Assembly: GCA_964590205.1 (NCBI GenBank) | Contig: CAZPVO010000001.1 | Location: 47,873 to 111,872 of the forward strand | Source: an uncultured Candidatus Saccharibacteria bacterium | GTDB taxonomy: Bacteria > Patescibacteriota > Saccharimonadia > Saccharimonadales > JAGQNJ01 | Length of the DNA: 64,000 nt | Direction of reading: 5' to 3' | Shown here: in pieces, positions 3,627 through 54,902 of the stretch | Numbering within the stretch: position 1 is the first letter of the stretch | Layout of the letters: every line of letters begins with the position of its first letter | Position numbers and translations under genes: made by a program | The notes under the pieces: model-generated | Seen by the model: the letters and a program-made list of their open reading frames with translations, nothing else | Told to the model about the DNA's origin: nothing | Database searches by the model: none

Positions 3627-3674
3627 AAAGTTAATATGGTGAGAATAAAAACTACGAAAGTAAAGGCAGACTAA

Positions 3675-4391
3675 ATGAGAGAGCGACCTGTGGACACTCC
3701 CCAGGTCGAAAGTTTGCCGCCCTTTGAATTCCGCCTCAGAAAAATAGACCAGAGGATGCCCACGCCTGTTGATGATTTTGGCCGTGTAGATAAACTACAG
3801 TTAATTACTGATGTGAGAGCTACGCTCAGCGATACCTACGAAGTTCCTTTTGATCTAAACGACCACCACATATACTGGTCAAAAAATAGATTTATAAGCG
3901 TACCAATTATAAGGGGGCGTCTTCTGGCCAAGGAATTTCGTGATCTCCCGTCTAATAGAATGCGATTGCCAATAATCTTTCACAACTGGTTACATCGCAT
4001 TACTGAAAAAGCAATTGTGCCTGATGATGATGTCATGCATCACACGGTTGAAGCAGAAAAAACAGGGGAAGATATTCTCCATGGTATTTTTACCAAACCA
4101 GAATGGAAGCTTATCGAACGGCGACGATATTTAGAGAAAGAAAATAGACTCGTGCCAGACGATCCAAAAGTTATCACAATTGCTGCCATTGAAGAGATCA
4201 TCCTAAATAATCTGGTTCAAGTTAAAGATGAGCTAAAACAAATGGGCAAAATTCCAGAGGCATTTAGAACTGTTGAGCCAGATCTGCCGACGCTGCAACT
4301 TGTCAGGCAAATAGGACGGCTTGCCACACCTGACTCTCTTATGTTTGCCCGAATGGTAAACGAACCAGTTGAAGAAGCGCTCGCCGCATAA
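3675..4391 (+). CDS. Hypothetical protein (238 aa) with a weak His-Me/HNH-like motif
   Basis: Long ORF downstream of a near-consensus promoter, with no family recognised. The DHHIYW ... SNRMRLPIIFHNWLH spacing loosely resembles DHH..N..HN..H of HNH nucleases, but that is not conclusive. Confidence 0.6.
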   Translation: MRERPVDTPQVESLPPFEFRLRKIDQRMPTPVDDFGRVDKLQLITDVRATLSDTYEVPFDLNDHHIYWSKNRFISVPIIRGRLLAKEFRDLPSNRMRLPIIFHNWLHRITEKAIVPDDDVMHHTVEAEKTGEDILHGIFTKPEWKLIERRRYLEKENRLVPDDPKVITIAAIEEIILNNLVQVKDELKQMGKIPEAFRTVEPDLPTLQLVRQIGRLATPDSLMFARMVNEPVEEALAA

Positions 4392-4440
4392 AGACACAAC
4401 AGTTTTCCAAACACCGTTTTTATGAGTAAAATCTTAGAAA

Positions 4441-4620
4441 ATGAATAATTATTCCATATTTAATAAGCAGCCAATTATCGAACGGTTGGATTTGTTTGCG
4501 CCCGGGATGGCTCAGCATATTACGCCGATCAAATACGAGGTGATGTACTACTTAAGTGAAATGGCAGGCCAGCACAGCTTAAGGATTATTGAGCCCGAAC
4601 CAACAGCGGAACAAGCATAA
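4441..4620 (+). CDS. Possible small ORF (59 aa), unknown function
   Basis: ATG...TAA, below the ORF-track cutoff, with no clear SD. Its stop codon lies inside the GCATAAGC box. Confidence 0.25.
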   Translation: MNNYSIFNKQPIIERLDLFAPGMAQHITPIKYEVMYYLSEMAGQHSLRIIEPEPTAEQA

Positions 4621-5366: not shown

Positions 5367-5763
5367 GGGGCTGAATTTTAAGCTCGACGTGGGACATTTT
5401 TGGTTAGATAGCAGGTCGCTTATCAGCGTTATAGGTAAAACCAAGCAATTGCAAAATTACTTGATCGCGCAGTAGCATTTGTTGGTAACATGTTTAGTGT
5501 TCCACGATTGTCACTCGCAACAGCTAGTTTTAGATAACTAGCCGCGCCTCAATCGACGCCAGATAGACTGAGTGTGCGCCATATTTTCTGGACGCTCACT
5601 AATAAGTTGACTCCTTTTTAGTGCTAAGACTTTAGAGTCTGCAGAATTCGTTTTTTTGTCTGTTTAGAAGACGTATTCCCAAGACACCTTAAACAGACTA
5701 AACCTGTAGAATGCTAACTGATACATCTTGCGGACGTGGGTGCAATACCCACCAGCTCCACCA
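5367..5763 (+). ncRNA. ssrA: Transfer-messenger RNA (tmRNA, SsrA)
   Basis: The 5' GGGGCTG pairs with the 3' CAGCTCCACCA, giving a G3:U acceptor stem like tRNA-Ala. A T-arm-like GTGGGTGCAATACCCAC lies just before the 3' end. Length is about 397 nt. The internal tag frame is tentatively GGT AAA ACC AAG CAA TTG CAA AAT TAC TTG ATC GCG CAG TAG. Confidence 0.93.
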
Positions 5764-45787: not shown

Positions 45788-47371
45788 ATGACGAAGCATG
45801 AGGCTTTGGAAGCTAAACCCGACTTTTCTGAAAACGATGCTGGGCTGGTAAAGATATGTATCATGGCAGATGATGCTGCAGCTGAGCTAGTGAAGCTCGA
45901 GAATGAGGAAATAACACCGGCAACCTATTTTAAAGTACATAAGAAGGTGGATTTTGCAAAAAATGTTACGAATATAATTGAAAATCCAAGCATTGAGAAC
46001 ATCGAACAACTGGCTGAAAATCATGCATCGCTCGCTTTTGCCCAAATAACCAAAGATAGTCAGCGGCAAGGTGATTCCACGCATGGGCTAATGACAAGAC
46101 TTGCTTATATGACAACTTATGAAGCGTTTCTTGTCGATCGCTTCCGTGTTAATAAGTATACAACTGGCAATATAAGTGCAACACGGGCTTTTAGTGAGAG
46201 ATTTATAACAAATATGGCTATGCACACAGCAAATTATTTGTATGGGAGGCCTGATCGTAAGGATATACTGGGCGAACTGGCAAGATTAAGTACATTGACA
46301 CTTGATCAGCCAGCACCTGGTACCGAATGGGCAGCATTTAAGGTTAGTGAATATTATCAGGAAGTCGGAGAAGCATTTTCGGTACTCGAATTATTGATGG
46401 AACAGTCGGCGGATGACAACGCTGAAACGGCAGAACTGCGCGAAGCCGGTGATAATTTATGGCAAGAAGCAGCCGTGTTAAGACGTTTTAGTTTAAAACC
46501 GGCAATTGCGCCAACAAATTTGCCTGGCCTAACTAACATTTACATGCGTCCAGGTTTTGAGGTTGTGGAGGAGCTCGAAGAGGTTAGCGCAAGAATTAAT
46601 CCAGTTAAAACTGCTCAAGCTGACCCAGAGCCATGTAAATATACACTCGATGATGCTGTGGCGGTCACGATGCTTAGTGACTTGCCGTTTTCAAGAAAAC
46701 CAGCGGAGTATAAACTCCTACAAGGTTCAGAAGAGGACAGAAGTTTTGGCGCGTATGTACCATTCAGTAAGATTTTGGATACGACGCAAGAAGATTTGAA
46801 TGGGGTAAGCATAAATCACATTATGGCTATTTTCCAGTTGCGTGATGATGGAGAGCTTTACACTTTACATGGTGTGCCAATACGCGATTGGGCAAAGCAG
46901 CTTGGTGCCGAAGTTGCATATCAGCAAGTACGTTTGGAACAATTAGCACTCTATTATGACCTAGTTGTTCCAGTGTACGTTACAAAATTAATCAAAGATG
47001 GTTTGGCCAGGCAGCCAGTTCCAGCAACACCAACTGACAGATTACACGAGATGACAATTGCAAGAACAAAGTATTTGCGTCAAAACCAACAAACAGTAGT
47101 GAGTGAGTTAGAAAAAGAGGAATCTGAAGCAAGTTATGAATACACAGGAGAAAAACGTCCTGTGGTAGGTCATCCGAGATCAGTGCCATCAGATTTTAGT
47201 GCAGACATTCAGACACGTGAGCGAGCCTTAAGAGAAGGTCGGTATGTACTAGCCGACTTTGGCGAAACGTGGGTGCGATATCATCAACGCGGCACGAGAG
47301 GCCGTGCTGACACAGTTTATGCAAAGCCAGTAAGAGGAAAGTACAAAGAAAGACAGCGCGTGCGAAAATGA
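45788..47371 (+). CDS. Hypothetical protein (527 aa) tightly linked to uvrA
   Basis: The ATG lies 7 nt after the uvrA stop. No TM segment, a basic C-terminal tail (RGKYKERQRVRK), and no family recognised. Confidence 0.7.
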   Translation: MTKHEALEAKPDFSENDAGLVKICIMADDAAAELVKLENEEITPATYFKVHKKVDFAKNVTNIIENPSIENIEQLAENHASLAFAQITKDSQRQGDSTHGLMTRLAYMTTYEAFLVDRFRVNKYTTGNISATRAFSERFITNMAMHTANYLYGRPDRKDILGELARLSTLTLDQPAPGTEWAAFKVSEYYQEVGEAFSVLELLMEQSADDNAETAELREAGDNLWQEAAVLRRFSLKPAIAPTNLPGLTNIYMRPGFEVVEELEEVSARINPVKTAQADPEPCKYTLDDAVAVTMLSDLPFSRKPAEYKLLQGSEEDRSFGAYVPFSKILDTTQEDLNGVSINHIMAIFQLRDDGELYTLHGVPIRDWAKQLGAEVAYQQVRLEQLALYYDLVVPVYVTKLIKDGLARQPVPATPTDRLHEMTIARTKYLRQNQQTVVSELEKEESEASYEYTGEKRPVVGHPRSVPSDFSADIQTRERALREGRYVLADFGETWVRYHQRGTRGRADTVYAKPVRGKYKERQRVRK

Positions 47372-47748
47372 CCAGCTTTTACCGACCCTTTATTGATGCC
47401 ACTGCTGAAACGTTAGTCGGGGGAGAGCATGCCCTTGATCGACGAGGAGTAATTACTGCGCATCGAAACTTAGCATTAATTTGTCAGATCGTTGCTATTG
47501 ATGAAAAACATCCAGAGATTGCGAAGGATTTATACGACGAGGCTTTGGTAGAAGCTGGCGCGATTACACGGGGTGATATTCATACCGACAATTGGCCACA
47601 CTCTGTAGAACAGTTAGCTTCAAAGTTAAAGCGAGGTTGGGAAGAAACAGATGAGCTAGTTTCGAGCATAGCCATAAGCAATCACCATGAAGATATAGCC
47701 GTTCGTTCACACCCTTCCGGCTGGGGCACGACTACGCTTTTCGGTTGA
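47368..47748 (+). CDS. Hypothetical protein (126 aa), coupled to the 527-aa gene
   Basis: ATGA overlap with the upstream gene; no family recognised. Confidence 0.6.
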   Translation: MTSFYRPFIDATAETLVGGEHALDRRGVITAHRNLALICQIVAIDEKHPEIAKDLYDEALVEAGAITRGDIHTDNWPHSVEQLASKLKRGWEETDELVSSIAISNHHEDIAVRSHPSGWGTTTLFG

Positions 47749-48465: not shown

Positions 48466-49152
48466 TTGAGTCAAGATAGTATTACATTGTCGTTAACCAA
48501 ACGTGAAGTTGTCGGTAAAGGGCTAAATCAATTCCGACGAGACGGTCAAACACCGGCAGTTATTCATAATCACGGTCAAGAATCAGTTGTTGTCAGCGGC
48601 CCATACCTTGATTTGCTCAGGGTTTATCAAAAAGCTGGTAAAACTTCACCAGTTAACCTGAATGTTGGTGATCAAAAATACATGGCACTTATTAAGCAGG
48701 TTGATTTTGATCCTAAAAAGAATCTACTGCGACATGTTGTCTTTAACGCAATTCGCCAAGACGAAAAGCAAAAAACTGAAGTGCCGGTTCACTTTGTGGA
48801 AGACGCTGAAATTCCAGCCGAAAAAGCTGGCCTGATGGTGATTCGTCAACTTGATGTTGTTGAAATCGAAGCCTTGCCGAAAGACTTAGTCGATGAACTA
48901 ACAGTTGATCCAAGTGGTCTTGCTGAAATCGGCGACAAAATTACCGTCGCTGATATTAAAGTTCCTGAAGGTGTAGAAATTTTGACTGAAGCTGAACACC
49001 CAATCGCAACTGTTGAAGAAACCAAAGCTCAAATGTCTGAGGAAGCTGAAGAAGAAGCTACTGAAGGCGAAGAAGGCGCTGAGGGCGAATCTGCTGAGGG
49101 TGATGAATCAGCTGAAGGCGAATCTAAAGAATCTGAAGATAAACCAGAATAG
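48466..49152 (+). CDS. rplY: Ribosomal protein L25, Ctc (general stress) form, with an acidic C-terminal tail
   Basis: TTG start 8 nt after GGAGG. RR.G..PAV..G...... pattern, with two domains followed by an E/G/A-rich tail. Confidence 0.88.
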   Translation: MSQDSITLSLTKREVVGKGLNQFRRDGQTPAVIHNHGQESVVVSGPYLDLLRVYQKAGKTSPVNLNVGDQKYMALIKQVDFDPKKNLLRHVVFNAIRQDEKQKTEVPVHFVEDAEIPAEKAGLMVIRQLDVVEIEALPKDLVDELTVDPSGLAEIGDKITVADIKVPEGVEILTEAEHPIATVEETKAQMSEEAEEEATEGEEGAEGESAEGDESAEGESKESEDKPE

Positions 49153-49180
49153 CTTTCCATTCTTAAAAAGAACATAAACC

Positions 49181-49204
49181 ATTACTTTGGACCGCCAAAG
49201 TAAT
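49181..49204. terminator. Perfect 10-bp hairpin after rplY (possible terminator, strand unclear)
   Basis: ATTACTTTGG-accg-CCAAAGTAAT. There is no U-tract on the + strand, and a T-rich run follows on the - strand. Confidence 0.35.
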
Positions 49205-49550
49205 CAAAACTCTTGGGTGCTCTCGCTCACACATATATCTGTTGATAGAAATCAGGCTCGCTGCGGAACTCCTCTCTTAAGTGCCACTGGCACTTCTGTT
49301 CGTCAATCAGTCCTCGCGCCCAAGGGCGCCTGATTTCCACAACATCTATTCTGTACACTCGAGATACCCAGAAGGATATAAACCCGGCTCGAGAAAACTG
49401 AGGAAGATTGTCAGGCTTGAACTGAGTAACTGCAGAGGACTTCTGGAGCGAAGCGGAATCCGCAGGCTGTTGTTGACTTTGACAGTGAGTAGTCACGAAA
49501 AAACGTAGCCCAGCAGTTTTTGATTCTTTTTGCTGACAAAAAGAATAGAG

Positions 49551-51365
49551 TTACTTGTAGCCCTCAGCTTGTTTGCTGAAGAGGTCGTGGTACAGACCTT
49601 TATTTTTCATAAGTTCTTCATGGGTGCCTTGTTCAATAAGCTGACCTTCATCTAGAACAATAATTCTATCAGCACGACGCACCGTACTAAAGCGGTGGCT
49701 TACGATCAAAGCTGTTTTGTTTTTGTAATGCTCAAAGATGGAGTTAAAAATTTCATACTCGGCTTTGGCATCAATGGCTGATGTCGGCTCATCTAAAATA
49801 ATCATATTTGCATCGCGGTAAAAAGCTCGGGCAATCGCTACACGTTGCCATTGACCACCGCTCGGTTCGACACCCTTTTTAAAACTGCTGTCGAGTACTG
49901 TCTCCCAGCCATGCTCGTAGCTTTCCACCATTTCATCAACTTCACCAAATTTGGCAGCACGCTCAAGAAGTTTTTTATCTTGAGGCTTAGTTGATCGACC
50001 AATGGAAATGTTTTCTTCAATTGGCAGTGGGTAGGAGTTAAACTCTTGAAATAATGTTGACAGTTGTGCATACCAGGATTCAATATCGACTTCTTGTAGA
50101 TCAACTCCATCAACTAAAATACGTCCGTTTGTTGGTTTGTAAAAGCGCAGCAATAATTTTATGAGTGTTGTTTTGCCAGCACCATTTTCGCCCACAAGTG
50201 CGACGTGCTCCCCGGATTTTATCGATAAACTCAGATCCTTGAATATTGCTTTGTCTTGGTCGGGGTAGGTGAATGAAACGTTTTCAAATGTAATTTCTGG
50301 AATTTTTTTAGTTGTTAGCTCAATAGCGTTTTTGCTGTTAACAATTGTTGGCTTAGCATCAACTAAGTTAAAGTAACTATCGGCAAATAACAAGCCTTCT
50401 TGCATGCGAGTTAGCGTTCCAAAAATTGTGTTTATAGAACCACCAATTCGCAGCAATGCTCCAGCCAGGAAAAAATATCGATCCAAAGATATCGATCGAG
50501 CTAATAATTGCTTAACCAGTACTATTTCGCCAATTGCCGTACCTGCAACTTCCAGCATCTTTGTCGATACCAGTGCCCGCGTTGCACCTTTGTATTTAGC
50601 GCGCTGCTCATCATAAAATTTTACGTTCATGTTATCGATTTTTTTCAGTAGATAATGTGAAGCTTGCGTACTGCGAATTTCCATCTGAGCCTTAGCACGT
50701 CTAAAAATATTTTCGAGGCCAAAAAATATATGCCGCTCATCACCCTTGGCATTCCAAACAAACCATTGCATTTTGGCAATGCGACTTTCCGCAATCAAAC
50801 TTGGAATTAGGAACAACGCAATCAATGGCACAATCCACCACGTAATCTGCGAAACAACAGCTGTGATAGCTATGAAGCGGATAATTCCGTACAGCAAATC
50901 CAGGTTAGCATCAGACAGGTTTGGAATTTGCCAAATGTATGCACCACTGACTTTATTGATTTCGTTGCGCATCTCTTGATCGTAAAAATCGGCAATATCA
51001 ATTCGGGCAATTGAACCGAGCAGACTATTTATTGACCAACGCACCAGCGAAAAGTACAGCATGCGCTTGCCATAACTCATAGCAAAAAATCCAAGACCAG
51101 TAATGGCAGAGGAAATAATATCAATTGCTACCCACATCCAGATGTAATCAGTTTGGCCAGAGACAATAAAATGCGCTAAAAGTGCACCAATCTTTGCAGT
51201 GGCATAAATAGTAGCAATGGAGCCGCCGATTTCTAAAAATGAGCCAAGAAAGAAAATAGCAACCGCAGAAGGCCGGACGCTTAAAGCAACTTTAAATAAT
51301 CTAAAGCCAAGCCGTGCATTTTTTTTGAACGGTAGTTTAGATGTTGTGTCGTCCGCTTTGGCCAT
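49551..51365 (-). CDS. ABC exporter, fused permease-ATPase (type I exporter), third of three
   Basis: GENGAGKTTL Walker A, PSGGQWQRVAIARA signature, ILDEPTSAID Walker B. The ATG at 51365 (MAKADD..) shares its A with the upstream TAA (TAATG). Confidence 0.9.
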   Translation of the reverse strand: MAKADDTTSKLPFKKNARLGFRLFKVALSVRPSAVAIFFLGSFLEIGGSIATIYATAKIGALLAHFIVSGQTDYIWMWVAIDIISSAITGLGFFAMSYGKRMLYFSLVRWSINSLLGSIARIDIADFYDQEMRNEINKVSGAYIWQIPNLSDANLDLLYGIIRFIAITAVVSQITWWIVPLIALFLIPSLIAESRIAKMQWFVWNAKGDERHIFFGLENIFRRAKAQMEIRSTQASHYLLKKIDNMNVKFYDEQRAKYKGATRALVSTKMLEVAGTAIGEIVLVKQLLARSISLDRYFFLAGALLRIGGSINTIFGTLTRMQEGLLFADSYFNLVDAKPTIVNSKNAIELTTKKIPEITFENVSFTYPDQDKAIFKDLSLSIKSGEHVALVGENGAGKTTLIKLLLRFYKPTNGRILVDGVDLQEVDIESWYAQLSTLFQEFNSYPLPIEENISIGRSTKPQDKKLLERAAKFGEVDEMVESYEHGWETVLDSSFKKGVEPSGGQWQRVAIARAFYRDANMIILDEPTSAIDAKAEYEIFNSIFEHYKNKTALIVSHRFSTVRRADRIIVLDEGQLIEQGTHEELMKNKGLYHDLFSKQAEGYK

Positions 51366-53128
51366 TATTCCTCCAAAAAGCCGCCGGACTGGTGGGCCCA
51401 CAGCTTGGCATATGCACCTTTTTTGTCGAGCAATTCCTGGTGCGTGCCTTGCTCAATTATTGTACCTTTATCCATAACCACAATTCTATCCATTTGTCGC
51501 AAGGTAGACAAACGATGAGCGATAGCGATAACGGTCTTGTCGTGCCATAAATTCTCCAAGGCTTGTTGAACTAAGACTTCACTTTCACTATCCAGGGCAC
51601 TGGTGGCTTCATCCAAAATTAAGATTGGCTTGTCATCTAAGAAGGCACGAGCGATGGCGATTCGCTGCCGCTGGCCAGCTGATAGTTTTACGCCGCGTTC
51701 ACCAACAAGTGCTTCGTAGCCGTCTTTAATTTGGGCAATGAACTCGTCGGCATGAGCCTGCTTTGCTGCCTTTACGATATCCACTTGTGTGTAAGAGCGC
51801 TCAGTCGCGTAAGCAATGTTCTCAGAAATAGTACGATGAAACAGACTAGTGTCTTGCGGTACAAAGGAAATCAATTTGGAGATTTGCGCTGGAGTGCATT
51901 CTTTACCATCCAAACTAAATGGTTCGCTGCTAACGTTGTAATAATCCAGCAATATTTTGGTTAGGGTTGTTTTGCCACTTCCGCTTTTGCCAACAATACC
52001 AATTTTTTCGCCTTTTTTAATAGCAAGGTTAATACCAGAGAGCACAGTAACATCAACTTTATCTGGGTAGGCGAAGCTAAGATTTGAAAGGCTAAGATTT
52101 TCTTTGAACTCAACATTAGAACCATTTTCAGACTTTACACCTACCTCATTAAGTAGTTTTGGACCAAACAAGTAGTTGTGTGCTTCTTCAGCACGCGCCA
52201 TTTTAAGATTGAACTGCGAGATAAACCACAGTGCATCCCAAATTGTTGTGGTGAAGAGTAGAATTGCTGAAAGTAGCGTCGCAAACTGAGCAATATTAAG
52301 CTGGCCATGCAAGAACAAGTAAACGTTCAAAATAATTGTAGCTGGCCAAATAAAATCGCGTACAAAGAATGACATCGTCATCCAAAAAATAACATCAGCG
52401 TTGAAAGATTTGCCGGCACTTTTTATCATCCTATCTTGTTCTTGCTTTATGGTTTGAATTTCAGAGGCTTCTTTTTTGAATGATTTTACGTTTACAAAGT
52501 TGGCCATCGTGTCGACAATCTTGCCATTTTTGGTAGACTTCACATCGGCAACGATTCGCTCTTTGTCAAACGCGTTCCGCATGGCGTGACGGCCAACAAG
52601 AAGCATGCACAGCAAACCAGTAATAAAAATGGCGCCCGTCTGCCAATTGATTGCAGCTAAAATTACGATCAGCGCAATAATGCTGACAATTTGAGCAACA
52701 TAGTTGAAGAACACACTGTCAAGAAAGTCATGATACTCCTGAGAGATCGTATTAATGTAAGAAGAAAGCTTACCAGTGAACTTATCCACGAAGTATGGGT
52801 ATGGCTGACGGATAGTTTTTTCGAACAGGATATTTTCATACTGATAAGAGAGCGGCAGAATAAAACGTAAGTAAAGCTGTTCACTCAGTCGCCAGATCAA
52901 ATTATGCCCAGTACTCAACAGAATTAATACAATCGTAAATACAATGGCGCCATGGCGATTCACTGGATTTGCAGCGAGAGCACCGGTTAGTTTACCAATA
53001 AAAATAGGCATAAGAGCGAGCAGTGTATCTGAAATCAAAAAGCTAGATGCAACAATAGCTGCGCCGCGTTTATGTTTGAGTAAGTGCGCAATAAATGAAC
53101 GTAACGCTGGGTGACTCGATTTACTCAT
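51365..53128 (-). CDS. ABC exporter, fused permease-ATPase, second of three
   Basis: GKSGSGKTTL, LSAGQRQRIAIARA, ILDEATSALD. The ATG at 53128 (MSKSSHPALR) overlaps the upstream stop in ATGAGTAA. Confidence 0.9.
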   Translation of the reverse strand: MSKSSHPALRSFIAHLLKHKRGAAIVASSFLISDTLLALMPIFIGKLTGALAANPVNRHGAIVFTIVLILLSTGHNLIWRLSEQLYLRFILPLSYQYENILFEKTIRQPYPYFVDKFTGKLSSYINTISQEYHDFLDSVFFNYVAQIVSIIALIVILAAINWQTGAIFITGLLCMLLVGRHAMRNAFDKERIVADVKSTKNGKIVDTMANFVNVKSFKKEASEIQTIKQEQDRMIKSAGKSFNADVIFWMTMSFFVRDFIWPATIILNVYLFLHGQLNIAQFATLLSAILLFTTTIWDALWFISQFNLKMARAEEAHNYLFGPKLLNEVGVKSENGSNVEFKENLSLSNLSFAYPDKVDVTVLSGINLAIKKGEKIGIVGKSGSGKTTLTKILLDYYNVSSEPFSLDGKECTPAQISKLISFVPQDTSLFHRTISENIAYATERSYTQVDIVKAAKQAHADEFIAQIKDGYEALVGERGVKLSAGQRQRIAIARAFLDDKPILILDEATSALDSESEVLVQQALENLWHDKTVIAIAHRLSTLRQMDRIVVMDKGTIIEQGTHQELLDKKGAYAKLWAHQSGGFLEE

Positions 53129-54902
53129 CGATGAATCCTCCCGATTGATGAGCCCACAGTTTTGCGTACAAACCCTTTCGATTACGAAGTTGGTGATGAT
53201 CACCCTGCTCAACAATTTTGCCTTTGTCTAAAACAATAATGCGATCCATGTGTTGAATGGTACTGAGTCTGTGAGCAATAACAAGTGTGGTACGGCCTTC
53301 CATTAATTTCCAAAGGGCATCTTGAATTAGCTTTTCGCTGCCACTATCCAGGGCACTGGTTGCCTCATCAAGAACCAAAATCGGAGCGTCTTTAAGCATG
53401 GCGCGCGCAATTGCAACGCGCTGTCTCTGTCCACCAGAAAGCTTGATACCTCGCTCGCCAACCAAAGTGTTGTAGCCATCCGACAATTCTTTAATAAAAT
53501 CATGTGCATGAGCTAATTTGGCAACAGCTTCAATCTCAGCCTGAGTAGCCTCGGGTTTACCATAGCGAATGTTATCGGCAATTGAACGGTGGAACATCAG
53601 CGGATCTTGCGGCACATAGGCGATATGATTGCGTAAATCAGTTTGAGCAATATGAGCAATATCTTGACCGTCAATTTTGATTGAACCCTTTTGGATGTCC
53701 ACAAAACGCTGCAATAAACTGGTGATAGTTGTTTTACCGCCACCACTTGGTCCAACCAGCCCAATTTTTTCACCGCCTTTTATTTCAAAGTTTAAGTTTT
53801 TAAAAACTGGCGACAGGCTATCCTTATAGCTAAACGTAACATCATTAAAAGCAATAGATCCTTCCTGGATGGCTAGTTTGTCCGGATTATCAAGATCACG
53901 AATCTCGGGTTCAATATTTAAAATCTCAGCCATTTCAGATGCATCACCGAGTGCGCGGTTGATGTTGCGCATATTTCGGCGAGCTTCCCACAGGTGATTA
54001 ACAATTGTCATCGTGTAGCTAACTGCCAAATACAGCGCACCAGCTGGAGCCTTGAGAGTTGTAACCGCAAGCACACCTGTAGTGAAGGCCAAAATATTAA
54101 TCATAGCCGTACCAGAATGAGCAATCATATCGTTTTTTGCTGCGATATGAAAAAGATCAAAATACTTTTTACTGGTTGTGGAAGCTTGTTCGTGGAACAG
54201 ATCGGCCTCTTGCATTTCACCAGCGTAAGCTCTTACGGTTGAAACATTGGTAATATTGTCGGCAATCTTAGCTGTGCGATCACTTTCGCTTATGGCCAGT
54301 TTTCGGTCATACGGAAATTGCTTCTTCAGGCGATGATACATGACGAAGAAGTAAAGGAGACTGACAAGCAGTAGTGTAAATGCATAGAGAGGGTTAACAA
54401 TAAACAAAATAACAATCGAGGCAACGAAGCTTGTAAAATGCGGAACTATCGCCCACATAAAATCATCCATAATTCGCTCATAGCCGTTAATAAACTTATT
54501 TACTTGAGAAACTAGCGCTCCACCAAAGCGATTGGCATGAAAGGCGCTACTTTGATGCTGAATATGGTTAAAAACTTTCTCAACCATTCGCTGCATTGAG
54601 CGAACTTCAAAAGTCCAGGTTATGACGACTTGTGCACGCCAAATCAAAAAGCCGATAATGCTTAAGATAATGTAGCCAACAAGATAGGGCATAAAAATCT
54701 TAAAATCTAGTGGTTGATGGGTAGCGTAGAGTGCCTGCAAACGGTTAAAGGCTCGTGCCACAATAAGCTGAGGGATAACATTTTGAATAAGCACAGCAGA
54801 ACTAGCACCAAAAAGGCTGGTGATAAATAACTTCTTATCCGGCCGTGTAAATTGCCAAAACTGTCTAAGAATATCCTTATTGATATTGCTTTTCTTACTC
54901 AT
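53121..54902 (-). CDS. ABC exporter, fused permease-ATPase, first of three
   Basis: GPSGGGKTTI, LSGGQRQRVAIARA, VLDEATSALD. The C-terminus (YAKLWAHQSGGFIDE) is nearly identical to that of the second gene (YAKLWAHQSGGFLEE). Confidence 0.9.
   Translation of the reverse strand: MSKKSNINKDILRQFWQFTRPDKKLFITSLFGASSAVLIQNVIPQLIVARAFNRLQALYATHQPLDFKIFMPYLVGYIILSIIGFLIWRAQVVITWTFEVRSMQRMVEKVFNHIQHQSSAFHANRFGGALVSQVNKFINGYERIMDDFMWAIVPHFTSFVASIVILFIVNPLYAFTLLLVSLLYFFVMYHRLKKQFPYDRKLAISESDRTAKIADNITNVSTVRAYAGEMQEADLFHEQASTTSKKYFDLFHIAAKNDMIAHSGTAMINILAFTTGVLAVTTLKAPAGALYLAVSYTMTIVNHLWEARRNMRNINRALGDASEMAEILNIEPEIRDLDNPDKLAIQEGSIAFNDVTFSYKDSLSPVFKNLNFEIKGGEKIGLVGPSGGGKTTITSLLQRFVDIQKGSIKIDGQDIAHIAQTDLRNHIAYVPQDPLMFHRSIADNIRYGKPEATQAEIEAVAKLAHAHDFIKELSDGYNTLVGERGIKLSGGQRQRVAIARAMLKDAPILVLDEATSALDSGSEKLIQDALWKLMEGRTTLVIAHRLSTIQHMDRIIVLDKGKIVEQGDHHQLRNRKGLYAKLWAHQSGGFIDE

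Follow-up and report, generated by a model that had tools for sequence, protein, structure and literature searches.

This study was concerned with a 64,000-nt stretch of DNA (hereafter the window) from an uncultured Candidatus Saccharibacteria bacterium and, within it, with the spacer that separates rplY from a convergent ABC transporter gene. The rplY gene (L25/Ctc; Pfam PF01386 and PF14693, L25p and TL5_C) occupies positions 48466-49152 on the '+' strand and has its stop codon at 49150-49152. The ABC transporter gene occupies 49551-51401 on the '-' strand and has its stop codon at 49551-49553. A sequence-only reading of the window had described this interval as its longest convergent spacer and as an unassigned candidate non-coding RNA. 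The first description stands once a spurious 89-aa open reading frame (ORF) is set aside, the remaining convergent gaps being 258, 6, 3, -4 and -17 nt, and all of the sequence motifs listed in that reading were recovered where it had placed them (Table 1). The second description is supported and can be refined. The spacer does contain a real structured element, for which homologous copies with heavy compensatory covariation were found and which matches no Rfam family; what it holds, however, is not one RNA but a pair of elements in inverted orientation, the left one an intact type A and the right one a truncated type B. Homologous copies and compensatory covariation together indicate a real and conserved structured element.

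The spacer was compared with 71 L25/Ctc relatives from species-representative genomes, each taken as a 6.5-kb locus centred on rplY and labelled L001 and so on. All 71 lie on contigs deposited as Saccharibacteria/Saccharimonadales or on closely binned metagenome-assembled genomes (MAGs), and the top match has 83% amino-acid identity. The sole other contig that encodes the same rplY protein carries an identical spacer.

Architecture of the two elements

The left part of the spacer (49153-49375) is an intact type-A element of ~225 nt, in which two hairpins, H0 and H1, adjoin the rplY stop and are followed by an imperfect rod of ~170 nt. In the reading direction of the adjacent gene, the type-A order is H0 (GTTCTTttccaAAGAAC-like, 0-10 nt past the stop codon), H1 (ACTTTGG..CCAAAGT-like) and the rod. 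The rod comprises the helices P1, Pa and P2, a mini-hairpin of 2 bp, P3, the conserved internal loop and, at the apex, the variable 10-11-bp hairpin P4. A pattern search found H0 to be the only TTCTT..AAGAA hairpin in the window, and in the H1 helix 5 of the 10 pairs have changed on both sides. Compared with dinucleotide shuffles, the left 226 nt gave z-scores of -4.9 on '-' and -5.5 on '+', and none of 200 shuffles was as stable.

The main internal loop is a 6x6 loop near the apex that can be closed by G.A pairs, and the apical arm beyond it measures ~27 nt. When UGACGA and GAGGAG are set antiparallel, they would form U.G, G.A, A.G, C-G, G.A and A.G, which amounts to a pair of tandem G.A steps, as is common in RNA. 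In one copy (L033a) one of the loop G.A pairs is replaced by A.C. The loop has no 3-nt bulge and fits, at the sequence level only, the arrangement of 5'-GA-3' opposite 5'-GA-3' flanked by Watson-Crick helices.

Table 1. Features of the rplY/ABC spacer, in window coordinates.
Feature	Coordinates	Strand	Evidence or remark
Left direct-repeat copy AGAATAG, 7 bp	49146-49152		Over last codons and stop of rplY
H0, hairpin TTCTT-aaa-AAGAA, outermost type-A part	49160-49172	'-'	GTTCTTttccaAAGAAC / CTTCTTttccaAAGAAG homologues in L163, L153, L033a and L051 beside unrelated genes
H1, perfect 10-bp hairpin	49181-49204	'-'	U-rich GGUUUAUGUUCUUUUU follows on '-'; covaries (helix 7)
Type-A rod, ~170-nt imperfect hairpin	49205-49375	'-'	nhmmer homologues, RNAalifold, pair counts
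P1	49213-49218/49366-49371		Left rod
Pa	49221-49225/49359-49364		Left rod
P2	49241-49257/49328-49343		Left rod; the pairing AAATCAGGC/GCCTGATTT lies within it
P3	49263-49268/49310-49317		Left rod
Conserved internal loop, 3' strand	49269-49274	'-'	GAGGAG on '-', CTCCTC on '+'; nearly invariant in 7 copies
P4	49279-49295		Left rod
GTGCC-act-GGCAC hairpin	49281-49293
Conserved internal loop, 5' strand	49300-49305	'-'	UGACGA on '-', TCGTCA on '+'; nearly invariant; anchor of metagenome pattern
Small hairpin of rod, GCGCC-caag-GGCGC	49316-49329		Left rod
CTCGAG 6-mers	49358 and 49388
RNase P P4-like 9-mer AACCCGGCT	49381-49389
CTCGAGAAAACTGA motif	49388-49401	'+'	Also found in L051, immediately upstream of the type-B rod there
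Partial type-B rod	49410-49520	'+'	Type-B profile, alignment, inverted repeats
GUCAGG paired with CUUUGAC	49410-49415/49477-49483	'+'	Type-B rod; two G.U pairs
AGAGGACTTCTGGAGCGA	49434-49451	'+'	Type-B rod
Hairpin GCGG-aau-CCGC (DNA GCGG-aat-CCGC)	49453-49463	'+'	Type-B rod
CCGCAGGCTGTTG	49460-49472	'+'	Type-B rod
Orphan P1 3' strand GCCCAG	49508-49513	'+'	Partner absent
Terminal 10-bp A/U hairpin, counterpart of H1/H0	49523-49546	'+'	Repeat I7; 5 nt from ABC stop
Right direct-repeat copy AGAATAG	49542-49548		Followed by AG, then ABC stop (TTA on '+')

The right part (~49382-49550) has the opposite orientation and represents an incomplete copy of type B, a sister type, without the 5' basal strand. 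A covariance model of type A (R1), run over the whole window with filters off, matched only 49221-49362 on '-' (112 bits, with the window's own copy in the model), so the right half is not a type-A core. A type-B profile built without the window copy matched 49459-49543 on '+' (E = 4.5e-4), and 49421-49452 agrees with the apical 5' segment of type B in alignment with L045, L046 and L051. A repeat finder reported three inverted repeats (I1-I3) that connect the two halves of the spacer, of which I1 pairs the terminal A/U hairpin with the left H1. About 30 nt of the type-B 5' basal strand are absent, and the right 171 nt are not unusually stable relative to shuffles (z = -0.6). The right half is probably a truncated, inverted type-B copy that is decaying, and the CTCGAGAAAACTGA motif may represent its 5' leader or promoter region. 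The mutual pairing of the two CTCGAG sites, which the sequence-only reading had put forward, was not borne out: the first site is part of a basal helix in the left element, whereas the second falls in the motif shared with L051 upstream of the type-B rod.

Covariation, homologous copies and insertion

Covariation was assessed by RNAalifold and pair counts in two alignments, a 7-sequence core and a 6-sequence full-length alignment, with shuffles and slid pairings as controls. The core has 41 pairs, with 91.4% of cells paired and 34 pairs changed on both sides, whereas the slid controls reached 39-45% paired and 5-14 pairs with two-sided change. The full-length alignment has 62 pairs, 89% paired and 46 of them compensatory, against 38-46% and 8-20 pairs with two-sided change in its slid controls. 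For each alignment, none of 500 shuffles matched the observed values. The helices covary in the homologues. The sequence of P4 differs in each copy, yet P4 is paired in all of them, which as a comparative pattern is strong evidence of selection on the fold. A caveat is that the element is palindromic, and template-switch correction at the DNA level could mimic part of the covariation; such correction would not keep the large invariant non-complementary loops. Dozens of compensatory changes have left ~60 base pairs intact, so a function for the element is very likely.

In an nhmmer search of the 71 rplY loci with the spacer, only L033 matched. It matched twice, in opposite orientations (E 1e-8 and 2e-7; spacer positions ~14-188), and its layout is that of the window, with rplY, two inverted copies and a convergent ABC gene in a distant genome. 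Metagenome contigs were scanned with a pattern derived from the two conserved blocks and then filtered with nhmmer, which gave four further true copies (L153, L163, L164 and L182); the L034 copy came from the genome set. Outside the window there are thus at least seven type-A copies (these five, L033a and L033b), in Saccharibacteria MAGs and metagenome contigs. R1 matched L045 and L051 weakly, the basal rod alone agreeing and ~90 apical nt differing. These two loci, together with L046 and a fragment in L047, define type B and hold the type-B copies found outside the window.

Copies follow the ends of rplY, nusA, uvrC, ABC genes of two kinds, and genes for an FtsX-like permease and a DedA-like protein, and the neighbours also include a NUDIX-like ORF and a DedA/VTT-domain protein. 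Of the 71 loci centred on rplY, 5 contain a copy, and among them the copy takes up four different places with respect to the genes around it. Given these varied neighbours and positions, the comparison of loci indicates that the element has been moved or lost repeatedly. Type-A copies are 48-65% identical in pairwise comparison; L033a and L033b, which share one genome, are 58% identical and keep the same fold, and copies within one genome are only 53-58% identical. Type-B copies at different loci are 69-78% identical, compared with 57-70% for rplY of the same genomes. For example, the L051 and L046 copies are 78% identical and the rplY genes of these genomes 69.5%. The low identity within genomes argues against a recent burst; judged by these identities, the copies are old, and their pattern is unlike that of a recently bursting MITE (a miniature inverted-repeat transposable element). 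No repeat was found elsewhere in the 64-kb window by blastn, nhmmer, the covariance model with filters off or the H0 pattern. In IMG/VR the pattern gave 47 matches, all of which were chance by nhmmer, and blastn of phage and plasmid collections gave no matches. No transposase, recombinase or RAYT-like gene was seen beside any copy.

Judged by orthologous junctions, the window spacer is an insertion, because four of the five relatives compared (L004, L008, L025 and L066; ABC 59-78% identical) have just 1-6 nt between the rplY and ABC stops. The fifth and closest relative, L001 (rplY 83% identical), has an unrelated palindromic insert of ~150 nt at the same junction (3664-3815). This L001 insert has a long inverted repeat of its own, TAGTTTTAGCAG...CTGCTAAAACTA. 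In this lineage, palindromic inserts seem to accumulate where convergent genes end. In most other relatives the rplY/ABC gap is 4-60 nt and in some cases contains a small A/T-rich terminator hairpin. The window junction after the right AGAATAG copy mirrors the L008 sequence GAG TAG AC TTA. The repeat suggests a target-site duplication, which is unproven because the right copy lies partly within the terminal hairpin. No flanking direct repeat was evident at L033, L153 or L163, and the junctions share no conserved target site. At L051 the insertion boundaries were not definable by protein homology, the upstream proteins not being homologous.

Several further observations were made at these loci. 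The native short rplY/ABC spacers of L027, L040, L043, L047 and L060 carry a recurring A/T-rich hairpin, TACTTAAC..GTTAAGTA, which is H1-like in style and looks like the usual bidirectional terminator of the lineage. In the sister genomes L045 (3709-4500) and L046 (3946-4290) the rplY/ABC spacer is ~1 kb long and holds extra small ORFs besides the type-B element. In L045 these include a long ORF at ~3815-4280, read by eye, with GC-rich hairpins at ~4340-4460; in L046 an ORF of at least 80 aa ends exactly at the 5' end of the rod. In L163 (4102-5640) ~400 nt of non-coding DNA beside the copy are followed by an apparent toxin-antitoxin pair of 258 aa and 124 aa, of which the 258-aa protein has a putative N-terminal helix-turn-helix region, also read by eye.

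In the window itself, three consecutive and partly overlapping ABC transporter genes of ~600 aa each, apparently paralogues, lie at 49551-54902 on '-' (49551-51401, 51365-53215 and 53121-54902). On the other side of rplY, at 45788-47748 on '+', are genes for 527-aa and 126-aa proteins without a Pfam domain, and the 126-aa gene overlaps a convergent DedA/VTT gene by 17 nt. A similar ORF pair (539 aa and 124 aa) precedes the DedA-like gene in L051, although its 124-aa member shows no homology to the 126-aa protein of the window.

Transcription and competing explanations

The spacer is interpreted here, with middling confidence, as two back-to-back members of an undescribed, Saccharibacteria-specific family of structured RNAs, small RNA genes that move among gene-end spacers. 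Each member would consist of the ~170-nt rod and, after it, a short A/U-rich hairpin or two (H1, H0) placed 0-10 nt from the stop codon of the neighbour, and would form a small RNA gene of ~215-230 nt transcribed toward the 3' end of the neighbouring gene. The left type-A RNA would be transcribed from '-' (49375 to 49153) and the right type-B RNA from '+' (~49388 to 49550), with termination at H1 plus a U-rich tail. The product would be a stable RNA and a putative protein-binder, contact being made through the invariant purine-rich loop UGACGA/GAGGAG (K-turn/loop-E-like, K-turn being the kink-turn). The right copy, having lost its 5' basal strand, would be decaying, and the family may have relocated or duplicated among gene-end spacers over evolutionary time. 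The sequence comparisons establish that the element exists, where its boundaries lie, how it folds and covaries, that it is patchily distributed and that it is an insertion, whereas the strand transcribed, termination at H1, binding of a protein and the way the family spreads are inferred.

It is fairly probable, from several features of the copies, that the transcribed strand is the one opposite to the adjacent gene ('-' for the left copy, '+' for the right). First, the tandem G.A pairing of the loop is available only on that strand, as the complement UCGUCA/CUCCUC cannot pair. Secondly, a terminator scan flags 49204 to 49181 on '-', where H1 has its 10-bp stem and the tail GGUUUAUGUU, the tract of which is interrupted and not canonical. 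U-rich sequence after H1 occurs solely in the proposed orientation, in six of seven copies, and H1 is the probable terminator of the left RNA because the U-rich GGUUUAUGUUCUUUUU follows it on '-'. Third, G exceeds C in the proposed orientation in 12 of 12 copies (skew +0.10 to +0.27). Both of the opposed window copies are G-rich in this sense, which rules out an effect of replication skew. Lastly, in L034, the best-scoring copy, the rod stands between uvrC and a membrane-protein/secG array and is co-directional with them only in the proposed orientation, the alternative being antisense to both.

Other observations weigh against this reading. No consistent sigma-70-like -35/-10 promoter was found upstream of the rod in nine copies, where weak -10-like boxes were seen by eye, and H1 lacks a canonical uninterrupted U tract. 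Minimum free energy is lower on the strand opposite the adjacent gene in all six type-A copies; since z-scores are equal on both strands, this difference is largely compositional. For pairs predicted on both strands, G.U outnumbers A.C by 12 to 8, a difference that leaves the strand undecided. An opposite-strand gene ends beside H0/H1 in 11 of 12 copies, an arrangement that placement in a 3' untranslated region (UTR) would fit equally and without a promoter.

This last point leads to the alternative that each half is a MITE- or ERIC-like palindromic repeat in the 3' UTR of the adjacent same-strand gene (rplY on the left, ABC on the right), co-transcribed by read-through and acting as an mRNA stabiliser, terminator or insulator. 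We consider this somewhat unlikely. In its favour, H0/H1 lie 0-10 nt past a same-strand stop in those 11 copies (rplY, ABC, nusA, FtsX-like, DedA-like), such a repeat needs no promoter of its own and none was found, and both strands fold equally well relative to shuffles. In addition, presence or absence varies at orthologous sites, a 7-bp direct repeat flanks the window insert, and a different palindromic insert occupies the same site in L001. However, the L034 copy would then be antisense to both flanking genes, and on the strand concerned the sequence after the hairpins is A-rich rather than U-rich. Conservation peaks at the apical loop and not at the termini, and the loop strands UCGUCA/CUCCUC cannot pair. 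Moreover, the copies within a genome are only 53-58% identical, with no recent burst, there is a single locus in 64 kb, and the junctions have no conserved target site.

A broader form of the RNA-gene interpretation would see in these copies a self-propagating class of rod-shaped RNA genes of ~220 nt in Saccharibacteria and other members of the Candidate Phyla Radiation (CPR), each with its own terminator and, for protein binding, a K-turn-like loop with double G.A, which colonise zero-length convergent spacers and occur as modular types (A and B) with exchangeable apical domains. We regard this as doubtful. If true, the members of such a class could regulate in the manner of 6S RNA or of a sponge, or could partner an RNA-guided system, so far unrecognised, in these reduced genomes.

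It is quite improbable that the element acts at the DNA level, as a single-stranded hairpin for a transposase or recombinase or as a replication signal, its palindrome being kept by template-switch correction. The whole element is indeed an imperfect palindrome with helices on both strands, the G.U evidence of selection at the RNA level is weak, and the distribution is patchy and the positions differ. Correction would nevertheless erase the large invariant non-complementary loops, yet these are kept in all copies. The missing transposase, recombinase or RAYT-like neighbours and the lack of matches in viral contigs, phages and plasmids also oppose this explanation, as does the G > C asymmetry, which holds in 12 of 12 copies regardless of genomic strand.

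A highly diverged known housekeeping RNA (RNase P, 6S, signal recognition particle (SRP) or similar) that Rfam missed is very improbable. The rod and its ~180-nt size recall 6S RNA, and AACCCGGCT recalls the 3' strand of RNase P P4, a resemblance that the sequence-only reading had pointed out. That resemblance lacks Rfam support at E <= 10, and the 9-mer, situated beyond the conserved element, is absent from the other copies. Neither the window copy (E <= 10) nor the six other loci (E <= 5) gave an Rfam match, and there is no open central bubble, the main loop being closed by non-canonical pairs. Unlike a single-copy housekeeping gene, the element is missing at most orthologous sites and has at least two diverged copies. 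A decayed protein gene or chance structure can practically be dismissed: 89-, 75- and 48-aa ORFs do overlap the spacer, and the sequence-only reading had found the composition of the first two implausible; the ORFs have no Pfam match and are broken by stops and indels in homologues, while helix variation is compensatory rather than codon-like and the z-scores of the left element are about -5.

Significance and comparison with known families

The genomes of CPR bacteria, Saccharibacteria among them, are tiny and densely packed, and to our knowledge almost no non-coding RNAs have been described in CPR besides transfer-messenger RNA (tmRNA), RNase P and SRP. The element persists in genomes where adjacent genes otherwise touch or overlap each other. 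As such it is a candidate for inclusion in Rfam as a new family, and it could mark an RNA-protein system of these episymbiotic bacteria and could serve as a model of how structured-RNA genes move in reduced genomes. Even if it were merely an ERIC-like repeat, it would be the first such family described for the phylum. A literature search on small RNAs, 6S RNA and MITEs or repeats in Saccharibacteria found nothing relevant beyond the lysM-TM7 motif.

Known families were searched over the window and the other loci. With Rfam 15 at gathering thresholds, only a tmRNA at 5367-5763 was found in the whole window. At E <= 10 the interval 49050-49650 gave only noise, with a best score of 17 bits where the gathering score is 50, and at E <= 5 nothing overlapped the element in six other copy-bearing loci. 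No family, whether RNase P, 6S, SRP, raiA, ROOL/GOLLD, HEARO or another, thus covers the spacer at either gathering thresholds or permissive E-values, and a tRNA/tmRNA scan found nothing within it. The tmRNA (5367-5763, '+') is full-length by Rfam (86 bits, E 5e-32), although ARAGORN reports no tmRNA or tRNA in the 64-kb window.

Several specific candidates were considered and rejected. RNase P RNA requires GAGGAAAGUCC... and ...ACAGAACCCGGCUUA for P4, and just the 3'-like 9-mer at 49381-49389 is present, with no partner strand and no Rfam match. For 6S RNA the rod is present, but there is no large open central bubble and no Rfam 6S match, and the element is missing from most orthologous sites. 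A retron, in which short hairpins are followed by a long hairpin, would call for a reverse transcriptase, and none lies nearby. A TIGR or bridge RNA is disfavoured by the lack of a Tas (Nop-domain) or IS110 gene beside the copies and by invariant loop strands. A type I toxin-antitoxin system or small protein gene is not indicated, as no start codon lies within 15 nt of GAGGAG, ORF length and frame vary, and there is no Pfam match.

Among known systems, the ERIC/MITE-like repeats (ERIC, RUP, Correia, REPIN) share several features with the element: an imperfect palindrome of 100-250 nt that forms a long hairpin, a position in gene-end spacers, variable presence at orthologous sites, internal segments that differ between variants (types A and B here) and, possibly, the short direct repeat that flanks the window insert. 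The MITE/ERIC features observed include a ~170-nt rod that is palindromic throughout, both ends forming its base, and presence or absence that differs among orthologous sites. In terms of copy number, 64 kb of this genome contain one locus with two diverged copies. The element differs from such repeats in that its copies are few, old and only 53-65% identical, those of one genome included, conservation peaks at the apical internal loop instead of the termini, two extra hairpins stand on one side, no cognate transposase or RAYT is seen and compensatory change is extensive.

6S RNA (RF00013) is similar in its rod of ~170-190 nt, paired 5' and 3' ends, conserved internal loops and the occurrence of two paralogues in some bacteria; the present element differs in its patchy distribution, variable location and ~27-nt apical arm. 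The sibling small RNAs OmrA/B and PrrF1/2 likewise occur as two related genes per intergenic region, each ending in a hairpin and U-rich sequence, whereas the copies described here are divergent (inverted) rather than tandem and, as rods, far more structured. Tandem-G.A modules (K-turn/box C/D-like, TIGR and IS110 bridge RNAs; PMC12045711) also have an internal loop in a long stem with invariant GA on both strands. The stem-loop guide arrays reported for CPR bacteria have variable loops, are arrayed and lie beside a Tas gene (PMC12045711). Here there is no array of units and no adjoining Nop-domain (Tas), IS110 or L7Ae-like gene, and, unlike a canonical K-turn, the loop has no 3-nt bulge. The element is therefore placed as a new family within known kinds, the structured small RNA or palindromic intergenic element, and its unusual traits are modular apical types, one-sided terminator-like hairpins and deep covariation in a minimal genome.

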